A stretch of DNA of 31,354 nt from IMG/VR virus record IMGVR_UViG_2531839531_000012. The stretch is one strand, 5' to 3'. Of this stretch, positions 3,443 through 31,354 are shown piece by piece (position 1 is the stretch's first letter; each line of letters opens with the position of its first letter). The translations under genes and the position numbers were made by a program. The stretch is from a virus. Taxonomy: Duplodnaviria; Heunggongvirae; Uroviricota; Caudoviricetes. The notes beneath the pieces are model-generated. The model saw only the letters and a program-made list of their open reading frames with translations. It did no database searches and had not been told where the DNA came from.

Positions 3443-4306
3443 TTAAACATGCTTTTCCAAGGTAAAGATAACTGCACCTGATGGTGTGATATCAGAGAGA
3501 TTACATTCAAACTCAGCAGACTTATTTGATAGCCTGACCTTTCCACCTGGCATTCTGATTACGTCAAAAATATCGAGCGCACCATCAATGCCAATAAGCC
3601 AACGACCATTTCCTATCTTTGAGTTAGAACAATCAACAAGCCAAGATGCGCCAACTCCATCAATAAAGACCAACTCATCAATGTTTGCAGGAACCATTGA
3701 AAGGTCTGGAGTCCAACGCCCAATATCTTTTAACTCACCAGCTTCAAGACGACATTTTCTTACTGTTAAGGCGTTAAGTGATTCACCCTCTTTGCTGTCT
3801 CGCATTTGGCCTTTTCCTGTAGATAGCCACTCTAACGATACGCCAGTATCGAGTGCGCAGGTCACAACCACATCGCCAGGGAAGAAGTCACGCCTAACCC
3901 AAGTGCTAATAGTACCGGAAGAAATACCTAATAAATCACCAAGCTCTTTTTGCATCGTAAAACCATAAGCATCCAGAATCCTACGCAAAACGGTTTTACC
4001 GCCGTTCGTCATAATCTCGTCATAAAGCTCTTTGCCTTTTAACTTGCAACCGACTCGCCCATGATTTGCATTTGCAAGCTCACCACTTACAAGCCAATTA
4101 ATATCAGCGCCCGTGTCAAGACAACACCTAACTATGATGTTGCCAGGTATTGCATCGCGTTGAACCCAGCCGCTAACGCTATGTTTCGCGATTCCTAGCA
4201 GGTCAGCCAAATCCTTTTGCATCTTGACGCCATAGGCTGACATTAAGCGCTCTAATACGCCATTTGACGCACCTATGCGCCACTGAACATCAAGCTCAGA
4301 ACTCAT
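3443..4306 (-). CDS. CI-like immunity repressor with two tandem 186-CI-type HTH domains and a C-terminal oligomerisation-like domain
   Basis: Two homologous segments (LERLMSAYGVKMQKDLADLLGIAKHSVSGWVQRDAIPG... and LRRILDAYGFTMQKELGDLLGISSGTISTWVRRDFFPG...). Position and orientation are those of the immunity repressor, divergent from the early operon. Confidence 0.7.
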   Translation of the reverse strand: MSSELDVQWRIGASNGVLERLMSAYGVKMQKDLADLLGIAKHSVSGWVQRDAIPGNIIVRCCLDTGADINWLVSGELANANHGRVGCKLKGKELYDEIMTNGGKTVLRRILDAYGFTMQKELGDLLGISSGTISTWVRRDFFPGDVVVTCALDTGVSLEWLSTGKGQMRDSKEGESLNALTVRKCRLEAGELKDIGRWTPDLSMVPANIDELVFIDGVGASWLVDCSNSKIGNGRWLIGIDGALDIFDVIRMPGGKVRLSNKSAEFECNLSDITPSGAVIFTLEKHV

Positions 4307-6326: not shown

Positions 6327-8552
6327 ATGACAAAATATACTTTTGCTTTTCCGTGGAATGCCCCACGGTCGGCAATAGTCAGTCCATATCTTACCTACGA
6401 CCAACAGTATCGCCGCGACCGTATGTTCGCGGCTTTGCTGCATGCGAAAAAGGTGCTTTCTCTCCAGCCCGACTGCGTGCGGTTAGATGTTTATCGCACT
6501 GCTGCGGTGCTGGAGCAAAATCAGGGCAGTCAACGAACCAATGCCTTTTTAATCAGCTTCTGCAAAAAGGAATTGCCGCGTCTTGAACTGGTCGCAAAAA
6601 AATACGAATGCGCGGGTATCAACAGCAATGTATCAACCGCTGTTTTTGGAGGTCATTTTGATACCCAGCTTATGCAATATCTGGCGTCTCGCATGGTTAA
6701 TATGGTCGCCCGATATAACCGCCTCCCGGACATGTCGCGCGCTGATGTTGACCTGTTGGCCGCTGATATTGCTAATTTCATTCGTGGTGAACTTGCCAAC
6801 ATTGATGACAACGGATTCGGCGAGCTTAAAACGCTGTACACCTGGTATATCCGTGCTGGCTTTATTTCCCTCCAATTCAACGTTATCCCACCACATTGGG
6901 ATCGGGTTGCAAAAAAATATGTCGGCGCGGATGAAATCGCACCGGCTATCGCCAAGATGTTTAACGATGGGTGGTGGCGTGGTCGTTTGCGCCGTGTTGC
7001 GGCTACTTGGCGCGAACACCTGCAAATTGCAGTCGGCAACGTCAGCAAGAAAAAAAACACCTACGCGAGTAAAAACTGCGTGACTGACTGGCGTGAACAA
7101 AAGCGCCGCACTCGTGAATTTCTCAAAGGTCTGGATCTCGAAGACGAAGACGGCAACCGTATCAGCCTGATTGAAAAATATGATGGCTCAGTTGCTAACC
7201 CTGCCATTCGCCGCTGTGAGCTCATGACCCGCATTCGTGGGTTTGAAAACATCTGTAATGAGCTCGGTTATGTTGGTGAGTTTTACACTCTAACCGCGCC
7301 GTCAAAATATCACGCCACGACTAAAGCCGGGTACCGTAACAGCAAATGGAGCGGTGCTAGCCCGGCTGACACGCAAAACTATCTAACCGGTATCTGGGCG
7401 CGTATCCGTGCCAAACTGCATCGGGAAGATGTCCGTATTTTCGGTATTCGTGTCGCCGAACCCCATCACGACGGCACTCCACACTGGCACATACTGATGT
7501 TCATGCTGCCGGAAGATGTTGAATATGTTCGATCCATCGTCCGTAAATACGCATGGAAAGAAGACCGCCACGAACTGAAAAGCGATAAAGCCAAAAAAGC
7601 ACGTTTCCACGCCGAGGCCATTGACCCGGAGAAAGGCAGCGCAACCGGCTATGTTGCTAAATACATCTCAAAAAATATCGACGGTTATGCTCTCGATGGT
7701 GAAACCGATGATGAAAGTGGTGAACTGCTGAAAGAGACAGCCCCCGCCGTTTCAGCATGGGCAGCGCGCTGGCACATCCGTCAGTTTCAGTTTATCGGTG
7801 GTGCGCCGGTGACGGTCTACCGTGAGTTGCGTCGCCTCGCTGATACCGAAACCGCGCACGGCCTGAGCGTTGAGTTTGCCGCCGTCCATGATGCCGCCGA
7901 CGCAGGTGACTGGGCTGGTTATGTTAATGCGCAGGGTGGGCCGTTTGTCCGTCGCGATGATTTACAGGTGCGTACACTGTATGAACCCCGTACCGAGCTT
8001 AATCAGTACGGTGAGGAAACGGTATGTATTAAGGGGGTCTACGATTCCTCCATAGGTGCAGGAAGCCCGATTTTAACCAGGCTTACTCAGTGGAAGATTG
8101 TTCCGAAGCGTGCTGTTGATTTGGCCGTTGACCTTCAGGACGGCAAAGCCGTCCCTCGGAGTTCTGTCAATAACTGTACGGGAAGCGAAAGCGATCCACC
8201 GATACTGGATTTAACAAAACCACTGAGTCGGCGTGAAAGACGAGAATTGACCAACCGACTCAGGAAGCAAAAGCCAGCAGCACGGCGAAAATTCATCCAC
8301 GGAACGGATGAGCAAAACGCAGCTATAGCTAAAACTATCGACGAAATACATCTGACAACCGGCATTAATATCAGCCGGGGCGAAGCCCTGCACCTGATGG
8401 CCGGTGGTAAAAGTTGTTTTGATGGTAAATGGCTACGCGGAACGGCCAAAGGAGAAATATTTTCCGCAGCACCATCGCATGAGGCTAAAGCTCGGAAAAT
8501 CCTTAATCGTGTTGCGGCGATGGCTGAAGCATCAAAACCAATACATAAGTAA
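6327..8552 (+). CDS. A: Replication initiation protein gpA (rolling-circle nicking endonuclease)
   Basis: 741 aa. Contains HWHILMF and YVAKYISK (active-site Tyr region). GGAG-type RBS. Confidence 0.9.
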   Translation: MTKYTFAFPWNAPRSAIVSPYLTYDQQYRRDRMFAALLHAKKVLSLQPDCVRLDVYRTAAVLEQNQGSQRTNAFLISFCKKELPRLELVAKKYECAGINSNVSTAVFGGHFDTQLMQYLASRMVNMVARYNRLPDMSRADVDLLAADIANFIRGELANIDDNGFGELKTLYTWYIRAGFISLQFNVIPPHWDRVAKKYVGADEIAPAIAKMFNDGWWRGRLRRVAATWREHLQIAVGNVSKKKNTYASKNCVTDWREQKRRTREFLKGLDLEDEDGNRISLIEKYDGSVANPAIRRCELMTRIRGFENICNELGYVGEFYTLTAPSKYHATTKAGYRNSKWSGASPADTQNYLTGIWARIRAKLHREDVRIFGIRVAEPHHDGTPHWHILMFMLPEDVEYVRSIVRKYAWKEDRHELKSDKAKKARFHAEAIDPEKGSATGYVAKYISKNIDGYALDGETDDESGELLKETAPAVSAWAARWHIRQFQFIGGAPVTVYRELRRLADTETAHGLSVEFAAVHDAADAGDWAGYVNAQGGPFVRRDDLQVRTLYEPRTELNQYGEETVCIKGVYDSSIGAGSPILTRLTQWKIVPKRAVDLAVDLQDGKAVPRSSVNNCTGSESDPPILDLTKPLSRRERRELTNRLRKQKPAARRKFIHGTDEQNAAIAKTIDEIHLTTGINISRGEALHLMAGGKSCFDGKWLRGTAKGEIFSAAPSHEAKARKILNRVAAMAEASKPIHK

Positions 8553-8626
8553 TTCATATCCATATCATGCACATACAGCAATCGCTCTATTCGTTTTTTT
8601 TCTTCCCATCTTTTGCCAATACGTGC

Positions 8627-8646
8627 TACTGTATAAATATACAGTA
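8627..8646 (+). promoter_or_regulatory. LexA (SOS) box overlapping a putative promoter
   Basis: TACTGTATAAATATACAGTA matches the CTGT-N8-ACAG consensus at 19 of 20 positions. TTGCCA lies upstream at 8613-8618 and TATAAA/TATACA overlaps the box. Confidence 0.75.
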
Positions 8647-8665
8647 ACCCTATGGGAGGGATTTC

Positions 8666-8848
8666 ATGGTTGGCGAACATTTCAGCCGAACGCAGCAAAA
8701 GTGGGCTTGTGTGCAATTTATTGCCGAGGTATCTCTGATTGCAAACTGCAAGCCATCAGACTTAAAGCTCGCGCTCACTCTCATTGCAGACCTAGCAAAC
8801 AGCGAAAATAACGAAACCGAAGATGATAATTTTTATAAGGCTGATTAG
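8666..8848 (+). CDS. Small SOS-controlled protein; possible Tum-like antirepressor N-terminal module
   Basis: 60 aa. GGGAGGG RBS 5 nt upstream. 20 bp downstream of the LexA box. Ends at TAG in the same frame as the following DinI-like ORF. Confidence 0.5.
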   Translation: MVGEHFSRTQQKWACVQFIAEVSLIANCKPSDLKLALTLIADLANSENNETEDDNFYKAD

Positions 8849-8851
8849 ATT

Positions 8852-9085
8852 ATGAGAATCAATATCACGTTGGATAAAGAGCAAAAAATTAGTCAGGCAA
8901 CGTTGGATGCACTTGAGGCTGAGCTGTACCGCAATCTTCAACCTATTTACCCAAAGACTGCTATCCGCATTCGTAAGGGCTCAGCTAATGGCGTTGAGTT
9001 AAGCGGTTTGAAACTGGACGAAGATAAAAAACGAGTAATGGAAATCATGCAGCAGGTATGGGAGGACGATAGCTGGCTGCATTAA
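8852..9085 (+). CDS. DinI-family protein
   Basis: 77 aa (MRINITLDKEQKISQATLDALEAELYRNLQ...DEDKKRVMEIMQQVWEDDSWLH), collinear with recalled E. coli DinI (MRIEVT...DALAGEL...EDKQRISEILQETWE...W). Confidence 0.8.
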   Translation: MRINITLDKEQKISQATLDALEAELYRNLQPIYPKTAIRIRKGSANGVELSGLKLDEDKKRVMEIMQQVWEDDSWLH

Positions 9086-9088
9086 CAA

Positions 9089-9165
9089 ACGCCGTCGGTG
9101 CTGAATCTTGCTTTCAGTGCTGGCGGGGTTGAAACTGGCTCCGAGAGGTGTTAGTTCTACCTTTC
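9089..9165. repeat. Copy 1 of a ~75-bp imperfect direct repeat (immediately 3' of the DinI-like gene)
   Basis: AACGCCGTCGGTGCTGAATCTTGCTTTCAGTGCTGGCGGGGTTGAA...GTTAGT aligns with 9492-9568 at roughly 80% identity. Confidence 0.6.
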
Positions 9166-9278
9166 AAACTTTCTCGATGTTTTATTGGTTACACACCGGT
9201 GATTAATGGGACGTTACCTTAGAGGATTTTATAGTGGCGCTTTGACAGCACTGAATAAAATTCATTGAGGGCGATAAT

Positions 9279-9488
9279 ATGCATCGACTACCGGGCGAAA
9301 TTCCGCAGCACAAAACTAAAAGCATAAAACTGATGGCTATCGTTCATCGCTTGCAGACGATAATGGTCAATGAGAACCTGACGCCAGCGGAATTGGTCGG
9401 GTGTGCAGAAATAGTCAGGGATAACTACGATAAGCTGAACGATATCAGCAGGCCGACACAATATGCGCCACCACCATGTCGAAGATAG
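9279..9488 (+). CDS. Hypothetical protein (69 aa) flanked by the direct repeats
   Basis: GAGGG RBS 8 nt upstream. No recognisable motifs. Confidence 0.45.
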   Translation: MHRLPGEIPQHKTKSIKLMAIVHRLQTIMVNENLTPAELVGCAEIVRDNYDKLNDISRPTQYAPPPCRR

Positions 9489-9491
9489 CGA

Positions 9492-9568
9492 ACGCCGTCG
9501 GCGCTGAAACTTGCTTTCGGTACTGGAGGGTTGAACAACGAGTCCCTCTAGGGGTTAGTCTGTTCCGT
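9492..9568. repeat. Copy 2 of the ~75-bp imperfect direct repeat (immediately 3' of the 69-aa ORF)
   Basis: AACGCCGTCGGCGCTGAAACTTGCTTTCGGTACTGGAGGGTTGAA...GTTAGT; see copy 1. Confidence 0.6.
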
Positions 9569-9580
9569 AGAGATTGGCCC

Positions 9581-9606
9581 AAACCGGCACTATTAAAGCC
9601 GGTTTT
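9581..9606 (+). terminator. Rho-independent terminator
   Basis: AAACCGGC-actattaaa-GCCGGTTTT followed by TCG: 8-bp stem and a T-run. Confidence 0.6.
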
Positions 9607-9706
9607 CGTATGTCCAATCTAAAGAATGGGGGCTGACATCCCATCATCAGATTTGTGTTATTTTAGTGCTACTCATTCGTCATTAGACATTGTAAGGGCA
9701 ATGTAT

Positions 9707-10417
9707 ATGAAACCAAGCACACACTGCGTTTATTGCGGTGTTCTCATGAATAAGGTTGAAAATCACCCCCACTGCCGCTCAGTTGAACACATGATTCCGC
9801 AAGTTTCAGTCTCCATTCATAGAACCAACGGCGAAGGTGATTTCTATGTATGCAAAAAGTGCAATGGCGATAAAAGCCGAATTGACGAGGTGTTAGGTGT
9901 CATTTGCCGCATGGTAGGAGAGCACTCAACAGGCAGCTTTGATGCTGTTAATAAATTCCATAATGCGCTTAAAAGAAAAGACTCGAAATTTCGTGAAGCA
10001 TTCCAGAGTGTTAGGCATACAAAAAAAGGTGCGCAGATAACATTACCCCTAAATGGTAGGGAGATTTACCAATACGGCACCTGGTTAGCCAAGGGAGTAT
10101 TTTTCTTAGAGTATGGGCAATTGTTGACTGTAGATAAATTAATTTGGATTAATATCGTTCGCCACGATGAAGTAATGGCTATTAAAGAAATGTATAGAAA
10201 TGAACGTGGCTCTGAGGCATTTGATGATTTATCGAAGAATAGCAACATTCCAAATATTAATGGCGAGTCGTTTCTGATTGTTGGCCAGGATGCCCGAGAA
10301 ATGTTTATTTGCTTCAATAGAGTAATGATGTTTCATATAAAGATACTGGATAGAACGTTTATTAATCAAAAAAAATGCAAAAAAGCCCTACTCAATCTGG
10401 AAAAAAGGGTTCGATAA
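9707..10417 (+). CDS. HNH nuclease-domain protein with an uncharacterised ~160-aa C-terminal domain; cargo gene in the A-to-cos variable region
   Basis: 236 aa from the Met with a TAAGGG RBS. N-terminus has C-x2-C (CVYCG), EHMIPQ and CKKCNGDK, an HNH-type arrangement. Distinctly AT-rich. Terminator-like hairpins on both sides. Confidence 0.7.
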   Translation: MKPSTHCVYCGVLMNKVENHPHCRSVEHMIPQVSVSIHRTNGEGDFYVCKKCNGDKSRIDEVLGVICRMVGEHSTGSFDAVNKFHNALKRKDSKFREAFQSVRHTKKGAQITLPLNGREIYQYGTWLAKGVFFLEYGQLLTVDKLIWINIVRHDEVMAIKEMYRNERGSEAFDDLSKNSNIPNINGESFLIVGQDAREMFICFNRVMMFHIKILDRTFINQKKCKKALLNLEKRVR

Positions 10418-10442
10418 GATAAATAAGATGTAATGAATGTGT

Positions 10443-10463
10443 GCATGCCACTGCATTTTTTTG
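10443..10463 (+). terminator. Weak candidate terminator after the HNH gene
   Basis: ATGC-cact-GCAT followed by T7 (10456-10462), with flanking GCATGC palindromes. Confidence 0.35.
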
Positions 10464-10562
10464 CATGCGTTGATCCAACCGCCAAAACATAAGGAGTACC
10501 GGTAGTAGCTTAGCTAAAGCGAGGTCATGCAACTGCATTAAAACCGACCCATAAAGCGGGCA

Positions 10563-10581
10563 GGCGTGGCGGGGAAAGCAT
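10563..10581. other. Candidate cos cohesive-end sequence
   Basis: GGCGTGGCGGGGAAAGCAT resembles the 19-nt cohesive end recalled for P2 (GGCGAGGCGGGGAAAGCAC) and 186. It lies in the non-coding stretch beyond the portal gene's 3' end, where cos sits in a P2-family prophage. Confidence 0.55.
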
Positions 10582-10807
10582 TGCGCGCCAGCGGTGGTGC
10601 GTATTATTAAAAAATACCGTCTGAGTGCGTTGTGGTGGAGCTAACGAGAGCGTTGCTAGATCGTGGGAGTTCTGATGCGAACGTGGGGCTATGTTTTGTC
10701 TGTGGAGCGATGAGAGAGGGTGAGATCAGTCGCACAATTCTACGGCTGTGCTTCCGTTAATATCTTCATCGGTATGTCATGTTCCCTACCAACAGCTGGA
10801 GGCTTTA

Positions 10808-11032
10808 ATGGATAACTATCACATTACAAAAGATGGCGATAAGTGGAAGCTTCAAAAGGAAGGAAATGAGCGGCCTAGCAAGACTGCAACAACTAAGGCT
10901 GAGATCATCAAAGATACTCAAGATTACATGTCCAATAAGACTGGCTCAGTAAAAATTCACAAAGAGGATGGGAAGTTTCAGGAAGAGCGCACTTACCCTC
11001 GTAAAGCTGATCCTAAAAAGTCCAAAGGTTAA
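10808..11032 (+). CDS. Small DUF2188-like protein; cargo gene between cos and the portal gene
   Basis: 74 aa from the internal Met (MDNYHITKDGDKWKLQKEGNERPSKT...KIHKEDGKFQEERTYPRK). GGAGG RBS. AT-rich. Confidence 0.55.
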   Translation: MDNYHITKDGDKWKLQKEGNERPSKTATTKAEIIKDTQDYMSNKTGSVKIHKEDGKFQEERTYPRKADPKKSKG

Positions 11033-11042
11033 TAAAGTCAAA

Positions 11043-11060
11043 GCCGCCATGATTGGCGGC
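11043..11060. terminator. Bidirectional terminator hairpin between convergent genes
   Basis: GCCGCCA-tgat-TGGCGGC: 7-bp GC stem with A/T-rich flanks, between the + strand ORF stop (11032) and the portal stop (11070). Confidence 0.6.
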
Positions 11061-11069
11061 TTAACTGGA

Positions 11070-12116
11070 TTATTCCGGGTTGTCGAGGGTGTACTCTTTG
11101 AACCTGATGACCTCTATACCGAGCCAGTCGTTTACCTCCCTGAACCTGTCCTGCAGCGGCGACAGCTCGTTACGCACAAATACCTTTGCCACCTTCTCAA
11201 CGTCACCGAGTGAGCCGATATTCTCGGGCTTGCCACCCATTAGCTGGAACGGCACGCGGTGCGCATCCATCAGGTCGGCGGCACTGGCTTTCTTGATATT
11301 GAAAAAGTCATCCTTTGTGGCGACCTCGCTCAGTGGCACGATTTTGATGCCGTCCGGTTTTCCGCCGGGGGCGTAGAAAAACAGGTTCTTAAAGTTGCCG
11401 AGCCCTTTCGAGTTACGCATCGCCTCGCGTAGTGATTCGACGTCGGTCGCGCTCTGCGCCGGGTCGGTCACATACATGATGTAGCCCGCGTGCGCGCCGT
11501 TCTGGTAATACTTGCGACGGAACAGCGTCGCGGATTCATTCAGCCAGGCAGAATTAAGCGCGCTGAGATATTCCGGCAGGCCGTAAATCTCCTGATTAAT
11601 ATCAGGCTCCAGCAGGTGAAACACGGTGTCAGGCGCGAACTCATGCGGCTGAGTGAAGTTTTCCACAAACCAGAAAATTGAATCATCAACCCCACGGCGG
11701 GTGTATTTTGCTGGTGATGCCAGCAACTTGATTAACTGGCCGGTGACGCTGTGGCGCTGCTCAAGAAAAGCGTTGCCGAAGACCAGATAGTCGAGAGCAA
11801 AACGGCTGAAATCCTGACGGGACAGCAGCGGGTGCGGAATGTAGGTGCTCGCGAGTACGTTGCGTTTAACGTAAATCGGTGAGCTGTGATGTACGGCAGA
11901 GCGCAGGCTCTTTGCCAGCCCGGAAAAGCTGACCGGCGGCTCGTACCATTTGCCGTTACTGATGCACTCGACATAATCCAGAATGTCGCGCTTATCGAGC
12001 ACCGGAACTGGCTCACCGAAGGTGAACGCTTCCATTTTTTGCGGTGCGCTGGCTTTCAGTTGCTGTGGTGCGCGTGTTTTCTGCGCGGCGGCTTTGCGGG
12101 ATTTTTGCTTACCCAT
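11070..12116 (-). CDS. Q: Portal protein gpQ
   Basis: 348 aa. P2 Q-like length and sequence. Adjacent to cos and divergent from the O operon. Confidence 0.85.
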   Translation of the reverse strand: MGKQKSRKAAAQKTRAPQQLKASAPQKMEAFTFGEPVPVLDKRDILDYVECISNGKWYEPPVSFSGLAKSLRSAVHHSSPIYVKRNVLASTYIPHPLLSRQDFSRFALDYLVFGNAFLEQRHSVTGQLIKLLASPAKYTRRGVDDSIFWFVENFTQPHEFAPDTVFHLLEPDINQEIYGLPEYLSALNSAWLNESATLFRRKYYQNGAHAGYIMYVTDPAQSATDVESLREAMRNSKGLGNFKNLFFYAPGGKPDGIKIVPLSEVATKDDFFNIKKASAADLMDAHRVPFQLMGGKPENIGSLGDVEKVAKVFVRNELSPLQDRFREVNDWLGIEVIRFKEYTLDNPE

Positions 12117-16052: not shown

Positions 16053-16802
16053 ATGACGAGCCCCGCACAGCGTCACATGATGCGGGTCTCGGCCTCTCAA
16101 GCCGCGCAGCGGGAGCAAGCCCCGCTGCGCCATGCAACCGCCTATGAGCAGATGCTGGTTAAGCTGGCCGATGACCGCCGCACGTTAAAAAACATCCGTT
16201 CAAACGAACGTAAAGCCGAGAAAAAGCGCGAGCTGCTGCCGTTCTATGCGCCGTGGGTCGCCGGTGTGCTGGCTGATGGCCGTGGTGCGCAGGATGACAT
16301 TGTCATGACCGTCATGCTGTGGCGTCTCGATGCCGGTGATATCGCTGGCGCGCTGGAAATTGCCCCGTACGCGCTGAAATACGGCCTCACCTCTGACCAC
16401 CGCCGCACAACACCTTACATGCTGGTTGAGGAAGTGGCGCTTGCTGCGCAGCGCCTGCGCGATGCCGGTGAGTCTGTCGACCTTTCCTGGCTGCAGACCA
16501 CTATCGACCTGACCGACGGCGCTGACGTTCCCGATATGGTGCGCGCCCGTCTGCATAAGGTGACAGGCCTGACCCTTCGTGATGCCGGTATGAATGCAGA
16601 GGCGCTGGCGCAGTTTCAGCGCGCGATGCAGCTCGACCGCAATGCCGGTGTGCGCAAGGAGATTGAGCGACTGGAACGGGCATTGAAGCCAAAGCCAGAG
16701 GCCGCGCCCCGTAAAACGACTAAACCGCGCACGCGCAAACCTGCCAACAAACCGGCGGCAAAGCGCGGGCGTCCACCAAAGGCGGTAAAAACCGCCGGTT
16801 AA
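16053..16802 (+). CDS. M: Terminase small (endonuclease) subunit gpM
   Basis: 249 aa with a basic Lys/Arg/Pro-rich C-terminus. P2 M-like. Confidence 0.8.
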   Translation: MTSPAQRHMMRVSASQAAQREQAPLRHATAYEQMLVKLADDRRTLKNIRSNERKAEKKRELLPFYAPWVAGVLADGRGAQDDIVMTVMLWRLDAGDIAGALEIAPYALKYGLTSDHRRTTPYMLVEEVALAAQRLRDAGESVDLSWLQTTIDLTDGADVPDMVRARLHKVTGLTLRDAGMNAEALAQFQRAMQLDRNAGVRKEIERLERALKPKPEAAPRKTTKPRTRKPANKPAAKRGRPPKAVKTAG

Positions 16803-30188: not shown

Positions 30189-31354
30189 TAACGGGGATGG
30201 CAATTGACGCCGGTGCCAGCCTTGCACCGGCTTTTATGCTGACGCTGAACAGTCAGGACATTACCAGCAATTTTAGTGACCGATTGATTTCTCTCACCAT
30301 GACGGACAATAGGGGCTTTGAAGCTGACCAGCTCGACATTGAGCTCGATGACACCGATGGGAAAGTCGAGTTACCCCTGCGCGGGGCAGTGCTGACGTTG
30401 TGGCTTGGCTGGCAGGGTTCGGCGCTGCTGAATAAGGGGGATTTTACGGTCGATGAGATTGAGCACCGGGGGGCTCCTGATACCCTGACCATCCGGGCGC
30501 GCAGCGCGGACTTTCGCGGCACGCTAAATTCCAGGCGTGAAGAGTCATGGCACGACACCACCATCGGCGAACTGGTCAGTACCATCGCAAAGCGCAACAA
30601 ACTGACGGCCAACATTGCGGAATCGCTGAAAAAAATCCCGGTACCGCATATCGACCAGTCGCAGGAATCCGACGCGGTATTTTTGAGTCGACTGGCTGAC
30701 CGCAACGGGGCAACGGTATCGGTGAAGGCAGGGAAACTGTTGTTTCTGAAAGCCGGTAGTGCGATGACGGCCAGCGGCAAACCCGTCCCGCAAATGACGC
30801 TGACCCGCAGTGATGGTGACCGTCATCAGTTTGCCATTGCCGACCGTGGGGCTTATACCGGCGTCACTGCTAAATGGTTGCACACCAAAGACCCGAAGCC
30901 ACAAAAGCAGAAAGTAACGCTGAAACGCAAGCCAAAAGAGAAGCACCTGCGCGCACTGGAACACCCAAAAGCAAAGCCGGTCAGCAAAAAGACAAAGGTC
31001 AAAAAAGAACAGGAAGCACGTGAGGGTGAGTACATGGCCGGTGAAGCCGATAACGTGCTGGCGCTGACGACGGTCTATGCCTCAAAGGCACAGGCGATGC
31101 GCGCCGCTCAGGCTAAGTGGGATAAACTGCAGCGAGGCGTTGCGGAGTTTTCAATCACACTGGCGCTAGGGCGAGCGGATTTATTTCCTGAGACGCCTGT
31201 ACGCGTGTCAGGCTTTAAGCGCGTCATAGACGAGCAGGCATGGTTAATCAGCAAGGTGACCCACAACCTCAATAATAACGGCTTCACGACGGGCTTAGAG
31301 CTTGAGGTTAAACTCTCCGATGTGGAATACAGCTCAGAAGAAAATGAGGAGTGA
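30185..31354 (+). CDS. D: Tail protein gpD
   Basis: 389 aa. P2 D-like, including the Lys-rich internal segment. Stop codon is at the window end. Confidence 0.85.
   Translation: MITGMAIDAGASLAPAFMLTLNSQDITSNFSDRLISLTMTDNRGFEADQLDIELDDTDGKVELPLRGAVLTLWLGWQGSALLNKGDFTVDEIEHRGAPDTLTIRARSADFRGTLNSRREESWHDTTIGELVSTIAKRNKLTANIAESLKKIPVPHIDQSQESDAVFLSRLADRNGATVSVKAGKLLFLKAGSAMTASGKPVPQMTLTRSDGDRHQFAIADRGAYTGVTAKWLHTKDPKPQKQKVTLKRKPKEKHLRALEHPKAKPVSKKTKVKKEQEAREGEYMAGEADNVLALTTVYASKAQAMRAAQAKWDKLQRGVAEFSITLALGRADLFPETPVRVSGFKRVIDEQAWLISKVTHNLNNNGFTTGLELEVKLSDVEYSSEENEE

Follow-up and report, generated by a model that had tools for sequence, protein, structure and literature searches.

The window analysed here, a 31,354-nucleotide (nt) stretch of DNA from the IMG/VR virus record IMGVR_UViG_2531839531_000012, is a P2/186-like prophage, and two direct repeats of about 75 nt within it very probably are copies of a structured element that is kept by selection on the sense strand, and not scars. 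Each copy begins at the stop codon of an open reading frame (ORF) and consists of a long G·U-rich hairpin, which we call P1, and a short conserved stretch directly behind it, module 2. The family to which they belong is restricted to P2/186-like phages, which have 1 or 2 copies each, always between gene A and the portal gene. As to function, we put the chances at about even that the element is a cis-acting RNA of the transcript of the LexA-controlled tum/dinI operon, in which a hairpin at the 3' end of a cistron or between cistrons is combined with a ribosome-binding module.

The repeats were first noticed in a reading of the sequence alone (the original prediction), and they are found where it had placed them: they begin at the stop codons of a DinI-family gene and of an ORF of 69 amino acids (aa), orf69, with 403 nt from start to start, and the degenerate 36-nt core that it had proposed matches the window exactly twice and occurs in none of 100 dinucleotide shuffles. 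The two copies are identical in 56 of 74 aligned columns (76%), and their 60-nt flanks in only 45-52%. A covariance model built from relatives and run over the 31 kb picks out the two copies alone (62.1 and 62.8 bits); no other match exceeds 10.3 bits. They are laid out as follows.

9083 to 9158, plus strand: element copy 1 (62.1 bits, E 6e-19, model match 9081-9158), comprising the stop codon TAA at 9083-9085, hairpin P1 at 9088-9130 and module 2 at 9131-9154, which ends in GTTAG (9150-9154).
9486 to 9562, plus strand: element copy 2 (62.8 bits, E 3e-19, model match 9484-9562), comprising the stop codon TAG at 9486-9488, P1 at 9491-9532 and module 2 at 9533-9558, with GTTAG at 9554-9558.

The architecture of copy 2 is that of copy 1. 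The foot of P1 in copy 1 pairs AAC (9088-9090) with GTT (9128-9130), and its module 2 has substitutions and a 2-nt deletion; P1 of copy 2 has two mismatched pairs and a 1-nt deletion in its 3' arm. As had been suspected, the copies are neither tRNAs (ARAGORN finds no tRNA or tmRNA in 8800-9800) nor clean terminators, because the stem is followed by GAAACUGG or GAACAACG and not by a U-tract, and a terminator scanner flags nothing at either site. What had been overlooked is the long hairpin inside each copy. As RNA, an 83-nt segment of copy 1 folds at -36 kcal/mol (z = -5.2, with no shuffle as stable) into two hairpins, one long and G·U-rich and the other small, and it does so on the plus strand only; the minus-strand fold is weak (-13.4 kcal/mol) and no better than shuffles, on which ground an antisense terminator for the leftward cargo genes was rejected.

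The evidence for selection comes from comparison of the relatives. Our alignment comprises 69 diverse copies, no two of them 93% or more alike, and has the window copies as its first two rows; from it RNAalifold predicts P1 as an 18-pair hairpin beginning 1-5 nt 3' of the preceding stop codon, in which 14 of the 18 pairs show compensatory double substitutions. Standard pairs fill 86% of the P1 cells, versus 29-42% after a shift of the 3' partners by 1-3 columns, and the covariation score of 0.427 compares with 0.228 for shuffled alignments, none of 500 of which reaches the observed value. The two helices of P1 are paired in 95% and 92% of cases, and the column pairs with the highest mutual information are stem pairs. 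The three AAC/GUU pairs of the foot are invariant in 68 of the 69 copies, and the loop is semi-conserved (ACUYGCU and variants); the arms are of equal length with no conserved bulge, and at one opposed position 40 copies have G·G and 15 have C-G. Moreover, on the top strand G·U pairs stand to A·C oppositions as 145:23, and the sense strand is the more stable in 61/69 aligned copies and in 79/87 of an independent metagenome set, which argues that the folding strand is the coding strand of the operon. Model scores follow the same polarity (50-93 bits sense, at most 27 bits antisense). The 87 unique P1 sequences of the metagenome set have a mean pairwise identity of 52%, down to 15%, and fold at -24.0 kcal/mol, whereas their shuffles reach -10.2 and their antisense strands -17.4. 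In copies linked to DinI the sequence of P1 evolves at about the synonymous rate, with a diversity (pi) of 0.33 against 0.37 at third codon positions.

These data leave it barely credible that the repeats are neutral leftovers, that is functionless recombination scars or a recent duplication. Such a view could point to the window copies, which are the lowest-scoring full-length members of the family (62 bits versus 73-93) and perhaps partly degenerate, and to the frequent decay of copy 1 in phages with two copies. Scars, however, would not retain base pairing through about 50% sequence divergence, and here pairing is retained at 86-95% although the hairpins have diverged to ~50% identity; in addition, module 2 is nearly invariant across six genera.

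Module 2 lies directly 3' of P1 and has a nearly invariant consensus of about 30 nt, GUUGAACAAC-GAGC-NNN-GCGAGGCGUUAG, which reads as GAACAAC, then a mini-hairpin of 5 bp with a variable triloop, then GGCGUUAG. The mini-hairpin pairs C-G, G·A, A·G, G-C and C-G, forming the symmetric 5'-CGAG/3'-GAGC tandem G·A motif, and its substitutions respect the pairing: G79·A92 and A80·G91 are jointly replaced by U-A and C-G in 8 copies, and the closing C-G becomes U-A in 3. Module 2 also contains a Shine-Dalgarno (SD)-like GAGG. In DinI-linked copies its pi is 0.09, like that of codon positions 1-2, a value biased downward because module 2 served as search anchor; in loci collected by way of DinI, which are free of this bias, module 2 is equally conserved across six genera. 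It may also serve as a binding site, another option raised in the original prediction. A sigma-70 promoter or a LexA, IHF or Ogr site was sought in module 2; none fits by eye and a promoter scanner finds nothing.

A survey of genomes and metagenomes reveals the same close tie to one phage group. The element is no generic host repeat of the kind that would have spoken against an association with this locus: of 5426 complete E. coli genomes, 327 have it, each at 1-2 places. It was also found in 52 phage records (including 186, PSP3, SEN1, SW9, Wphi and Yersinia P2-like phages), at least about 205 loci of IMG/VR in two pattern scans, and at least 120 metagenome loci in one scan. Among the matches listed, 200 of the 205 IMG/VR loci and 116 of the 120 metagenome loci co-encode homologues of A, the portal protein or DinI, those that do not being fragments below 5.2 kb; all loci long enough to judge are P2-like phage, and the 18 plasmid matches examined are P2-like prophages inside plasmids. 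Over 1.05 Mb of P2-like DNA the covariance model finds 1-2 copies per locus and none elsewhere. Additional support comes from nine loci that were retrieved through the DinI protein alone, independently of the element, from Enterobacter, Citrobacter, Serratia, Pantoea, Buttiauxella and Scandinavium. All nine have a model match starting at the DinI stop, eight of them at 49-88 bits, while the match in Scandinavium, where module 2 has decayed or been lost, is for that reason weak (16.9 bits, E 0.0016). In Wphi and YpM_50, P2-type phages without these genes, an orf69 homologue and then the element follow just 3' of orf91. Canonical P2 lacks it, its best match (11.1 bits) being noise.

In the window the element belongs to a single transcription unit, in the order LexA box, tumA, dinI, copy 1, orf69, copy 2 and terminator, whose parts and neighbours are these.

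6327 to 8552: gene for replication protein A.
8629 to 8644, plus strand: perfect LexA box CTGTATAAATATACAG, located at the SOS-operon promoter, and positional homologue of p95 of phage 186.
8666 to 8848, plus strand: tumA-like ORF of 60 aa, the first gene of the operon (phrog_1993, E 1e-31).
8852 to 9085, plus strand: DinI-family/tumB ORF of 77 aa (Pfam DinI, E 7.4e-24), whose TAA stop provides the first three bases of copy 1.
9279 to 9488, plus strand: orf69, of 69 aa (phrog_11386, E 2e-46), a family with no assigned function, whose TAG stop (9486-9488) opens copy 2.
9584 to 9609, plus strand: intrinsic terminator CCGGC-ACTATTAAA-GCCGG-TTTT, the homologue of 186 t95b and the end of the SOS operon.
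11070 to 12116, minus strand: portal gene.

A scan of the window for CTGT-N8-ACAG returned a single match, this LexA box, 22 nt 5' of the tumA-like ORF, and therefore the tumA-dinI-orf69 unit should be SOS-induced; the 186 annotation has p95 and a LexA site at the matching position, and PSP3 tumA and SEN1 gp40 are positional equivalents of the tumA-like ORF. The terminator was assigned by comparing the window with the 186 locus 2596-2623, annotated as 't95b; p95 transcript terminator', and a simple terminator scanner is silent on it because its loop is 9 nt. Cargo follows it, and after that come the cos region and the portal gene. The order in 186 is similar: p95 with its LexA site, tum, t95a, orf97, the element (30341-30412, unannotated), t95b 24 nt further on, and cos.

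To see how general this arrangement is, we surveyed 163 non-redundant contexts, counting ORFs of at least 45 aa. In most of them the stop codon of the 5' ORF, which may be TAA, TAG or TGA, ends 70-72 nt before the end of the element, and the 5' ORFs (DinI, orf69, 186 orf97-like and several others) are unrelated to each other. On the 3' side an ORF starts at most 13 nt after GUUAG in 33/163 contexts, usually after 2-3 nt; its AUG then lies 8-10 nt 3' of the GAGG of module 2, no other SD for it was seen in the sequences examined, and it encodes either an 85-aa phage protein (phrog_2100) or a UmuD-like ORF. A hairpin with a T-run follows within 110 nt in 44/163, which in the 186-like phages is a t95b-type terminator 25-45 nt on, and unrelated sequence follows in 86/163. 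Homology stops exactly at GTTAG beside many different 3' sequences. In phages of the 186 type and in many P2-like ones, conserved sequence ends with the element and the variable region begins, so that it would also be a passive homology arm for accessory gene exchange.

Two of the following ORFs deserve description. The phrog_2100 protein, of 85-88 aa (MGxKDxNYQVVYRGE...GGWVFFQRPKECGGGYWLG...), begins 2-3 nt 3' of the element in loci L118, L206, L173, L159, L215 and L216 and follows it in many P2-like phages outside E. coli; it is without Pfam or NCBIfam match, and is a candidate partner or regulator of the element. In loci L146 (oriented 1253-1651) and L111 (oriented 9126-9485) an ORF starting MGFPSPAQDYVE... 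comes after the element, resembling by eye the N-terminal region of UmuD, with no Pfam match. A tumA-like ORF, not dinI, lies 5' of the element in both loci, and the UmuD-like ORF would be a second SOS-type gene linked to it.

Considering where the element lies and what adjoins it, we favour, at the even chance stated above, a cis-acting RNA. Where the upstream cistron ends, P1 would act as a barrier or determine processing, shielding the tum/dinI message from 3'-to-5' decay and insulating it from downstream sequence, and may do so at the place where 186 has its terminator t95a. Module 2 would be where translation of the gene behind it is initiated, the G·A hairpin partly sequestering its SD, and in some relatives its GAGG would be the only SD for orf85 or the UmuD-like ORF. 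Where the next gene has been replaced by a terminator or by cargo, the element would persist as the 3' untranslated region (UTR) of the operon, and in P2-type phages without tum it would ride on the early-operon transcript instead. Of the options in the original prediction this favours the conserved 3' UTR or small-RNA element, in view of the sense-strand hairpin, the abundant compensatory substitutions, the occurrence in hundreds of phages, and the position within one transcription unit that runs from the LexA box to the t95b homologue.

Several observations weigh against this cis-acting RNA. Folded by itself, copy 2 is no more stable than its shuffled versions (z = 0.09), and to this may be added the low scores of both window copies and the search bias in the diversity of module 2 noted above. 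In the window and in 186 no ORF begins after module 2 and yet it is retained, therefore a role as ribosome-binding site (RBS) cannot account for its conservation there; this, along with the invariant AAC/GUU foot, is what the proposal explains poorly, and the foot and the semi-conserved loop both exceed the needs of a simple exonuclease barrier. The plasmid-borne prophage of locus L224 has no sense-strand ORF 5' of its element. Canonical P2 is fully viable without the element, so its function must be accessory. Sequence alone cannot separate an RNA from single-stranded DNA (ssDNA) of the same strand, and every functional step given above has been deduced from it.

The conservation of module 2 where no ORF follows leads to a trans-acting alternative, which we think doubtful: the 3' end of the SOS operon (P1, module 2 and terminator, about 130 nt), as laid out in 186 and at window copy 2, would be released as a small RNA or a protein sponge, with module 2 as its seed or protein-binding site. 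The terminator-like hairpin and T-run within 110 nt in 44/163 contexts would produce the usual layout of hairpin, conserved single strand and terminator, module 2 is conserved far beyond the needs of an RBS where no ORF follows, and it contains AACAAC, which we take to be an (AAN)n-type motif as bound by Hfq. Set against this, many copies lack a nearby terminator, window copy 1 among them, and module 2 is SD-like and not anti-SD-like. Furthermore, no complementary target of at least 9 nt above chance was found within the phage window (host targets were not searched); the search gave 43 k-mer matches, mostly overlapping self-antisense, with about 6 expected for 9-mers.

A role in ssDNA, as a plus-strand hairpin that primes lagging-strand synthesis during protein A rolling-circle replication, would fit the strand specificity of the element, its location 0.5-2 kb 3' of the ori inside gene A, and its presence only in phages with an A replicase. 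It is nevertheless highly improbable, because canonical P2 replicates without the element; moreover a stem with 12% G·U pairs is poorly suited to DNA, the stop-codon register and the SD-AUG link have no role in priming, and some phages have two copies.

The abrupt end of homology at GTTAG and the bracketing of orf69 bear on whether the element is a site of cassette exchange, as the original prediction had offered as one option. Two copies were found in 17 sources (16 related loci and the window), all 17 of which bracket orf69, the sole ORF found between two copies, with a spacing of 403-406 nt (432 nt in one). Since it is the same orf69 in every case, the pairs are best explained by one duplication or mosaic event and not by a general cassette system. 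The unit of orf69 and element occurs alone in P2-type phages, and the second copy in the window may have arisen when such a unit was joined behind one of dinI and element. Copy 1 then decays often in two-copy phages (L025 has lost the hairpin by deletion, and the window, L016 and L020 have an altered module 2), which suggests that a single copy suffices. Hence the element does mark the left edge of the variable cos-proximal region and in two-copy phages does bracket orf69, and what we do not retain is the general cassette system and the notion of scars.

A more specific form of the exchange idea is that the element is an attC-like, structure-specific recombination site, at which a recombinase reads folded ssDNA with AAC...GTT and cassettes of ORF plus element are swapped at the edge of a defence hotspot. 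We regard this as unlikely, and the broader claim that P2/186-like phages use the element as integrons use attC, with units of ORF and hairpin such as orf69 being captured, excised and shuffled, as decidedly so. Several features are reminiscent of attC: similar to many attC sites the element starts at the stop of an ORF, it keeps structure while sequence is free save for the AAC/GUU foot (68/69), its GTTGAAC conforms to the attC core GTTRRRY, and its GCGTTAG-like 3' end AGGCGTTAG is similar to those of attC_aadA1 (...CAAGCGTTAGAT) and attC_dfrA1 (...CCAGGCGTTAAAC). In some phages the next ORF begins 2-3 nt on, and, as in integrons, variable accessory genes adjoin it, with homology ending exactly at GTTAG beside diverse 3' sequences. 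The top matches of our model in two class 1 integron loci are attC sites (attC_dfrA1 at 10.2 bits and attC_aadA1 at 7.7 bits), but these scores are no better than chance matches in P2 DNA (11.1 bits). Unlike attC, the element has a symmetric stem without extrahelical bases, its 5' side is of the type (A/G/U)(A/C)AAAAC and not RYYYAAC, so that only AAC pairs, and an invariant 30-nt module lies within the site. The strand that folds is the top (coding) strand, by the 145:23 ratio given above, whereas attC acts through its bottom strand. There is no cassette array, only orf69 is bracketed, and the HNH-like and DUF2188 cargo ORFs of the window have no copy. We know of no integron-type integrase in P2/186-like phages, though intI was not specifically searched.

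Other candidates were tried and set aside. A coding extension by readthrough does not agree with the sequences, since the copies do not keep a common frame and covariation affects both arms. A switch in which the loop of hairpin 2 pairs with the P1 3' arm once a terminating ribosome opens P1 gave -7.86 kcal/mol for a copy's own partner versus -7.13 for swapped ones, with a median rank of 32/69. A closing helix between the stop codon and GUUA was not adopted, since the flanking positions do not covary, the pairing of stop codon and UUA itself being uninformative because any stop (URR) pairs with UUA by construction. A type III toxin-antitoxin antitoxin RNA is at odds with copies that lie 403 nt apart with an ORF between, with the single copy of most phages, and with 186, where terminator and cos follow the element and no ORF does. 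Finally, a processive antiterminator of the HK022 put or lambda nut kind is made less likely, indirectly, by 186, where the element stands 24 nt before t95b, the annotated terminator of the p95 transcript.

The covarying two-part motif tied to P2/186-like phages appears to be undescribed so far. Rfam 15 (cmscan, E up to 10) has no match over either window copy (8000-11200), the 186 copy or the Pantoea copy; nothing is annotated at the element in the 186, PSP3 or SEN1 records or in RefSeq E. coli Ecol_545; and we found no published description in the literature, where Nilsson et al. 2004 (Mol Biol Evol 21:1) may contain earlier observations. By analogy the element may be likened to post-cistronic stabiliser or processing hairpins with an attached RBS. 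From general knowledge, the repetitive extragenic palindromic (REP) sequence of malE-malF, the RNase III sites of T7 early RNA and lambda sib share with it a stable sense-strand hairpin without U-tract, and a place after a stop codon in a polycistronic transcript with the next RBS just 3'. What sets the element apart from these is its invariant AAC/GUU foot and the invariant module of 30 nt joined to it, and unlike REP and bacterial interspersed mosaic elements (BIME) it occurs in 1-2 copies per genome, where REP has hundreds. The closest comparison by position is with t95a and t95b of 186, which lie in the same operon: t95a follows tum where other phages have P1, the 186 element lies between orf97 and t95b, and window copy 2 precedes the t95b homologue. 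Both are ordinary terminators of hairpin and U-tract, and of these two hallmarks the element has only the hairpin (18 bp).

We also compared the element to the RfaH ops/JUMPStart sequence, since both precede horizontally acquired genes and the family consensus GGCGTTAG is one base off the ops core GGCGGTAG, which loci L215 and L217 in fact match. Base 5 of ops is an essential G. In nearly all copies of the element this base is T, and the full ops sequence GGCGGTAGnnTG (non-template strand) is not present: the window copies read GGTGTTAG and GGGGTTAG, and the trailing TG is absent.

Further observations concern the surroundings of the element and its carriers. Just 3' of the t95b-like terminator of the window, a 263-aa ORF (9626-10417, plus strand) has an HNH-like N-terminus of the form CxxC...H...CxxC and belongs to phrog_31193 (E 9e-172); no Pfam or NCBIfam model matches it, and in PADLOC it is weakly similar to the Septu nuclease PtuB (E 8e-5). 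It is a candidate single-gene defence cargo of the hotspot. A DUF2188 ORF (10748-11032, plus strand; Pfam E 3e-16), a match to the PADLOC candidate PDC-S16 (E 1e-13), lies between the cargo and the portal gene, near the expected cos. On the minus strand, 11030-11100 gives a sub-threshold match to the Rfam family STnc430 (30.2 bits, gathering threshold 47, E 0.046), confined to a terminator-like hairpin 3' of the portal gene, and is probably the tQ terminator and not the enterobacterial small RNA STnc430. The match of 10.3 bits to our own model, at 16104-16130 on the minus strand, involves just the hairpin of the model and corresponds to a perfect, G+C-rich hairpin, GCGCAGCGGGG-CUUGC-UCCCGCUGCGC, with the same loop as the element; it is probably an unrelated late-gene terminator. 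Among the plasmid-borne prophages, L224 (Salmonella plasmid p20723-1) has its element at 4001-4070 between two minus-strand cargo genes, one Fic-family and one hypothetical, and as its 5' junction falls exactly at TAAC, cargo can be inserted immediately to the left of the element too. Locus L223 (Klebsiella IncC plasmid) and about 14 related plasmids of 120-216 kb carry a complete-looking P2-like prophage (cox to terminase) with an Abi-P2-type reverse transcriptase in the hotspot; the plasmids are of the conjugative IncC type and occur in Klebsiella, E. coli, Citrobacter, Enterobacter and Providencia.

Taken together, the element is a candidate new RNA family supported by covariation, with at least several hundred copies in the three collections scanned, and it provides a practical marker of the left edge of a hotspot. 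The interval from gpA to the portal gene of P2-like phages is known as a hotspot of anti-phage defence, in which recombination near cos has only been speculated upon (PMC9122126, PMC13586616). How cargo is exchanged and expressed there is the question on which the element may bear. If the attC-like reading were true, it would offer a mechanism for very fast turnover of anti-phage genes at the locus. More generally, the first gene product of its operon, Tum, sets off prophage induction, and a selected RNA structure at this place could set the level of Tum and DinI after DNA damage, control the gene that follows, or define a recombination boundary of the hotspot.

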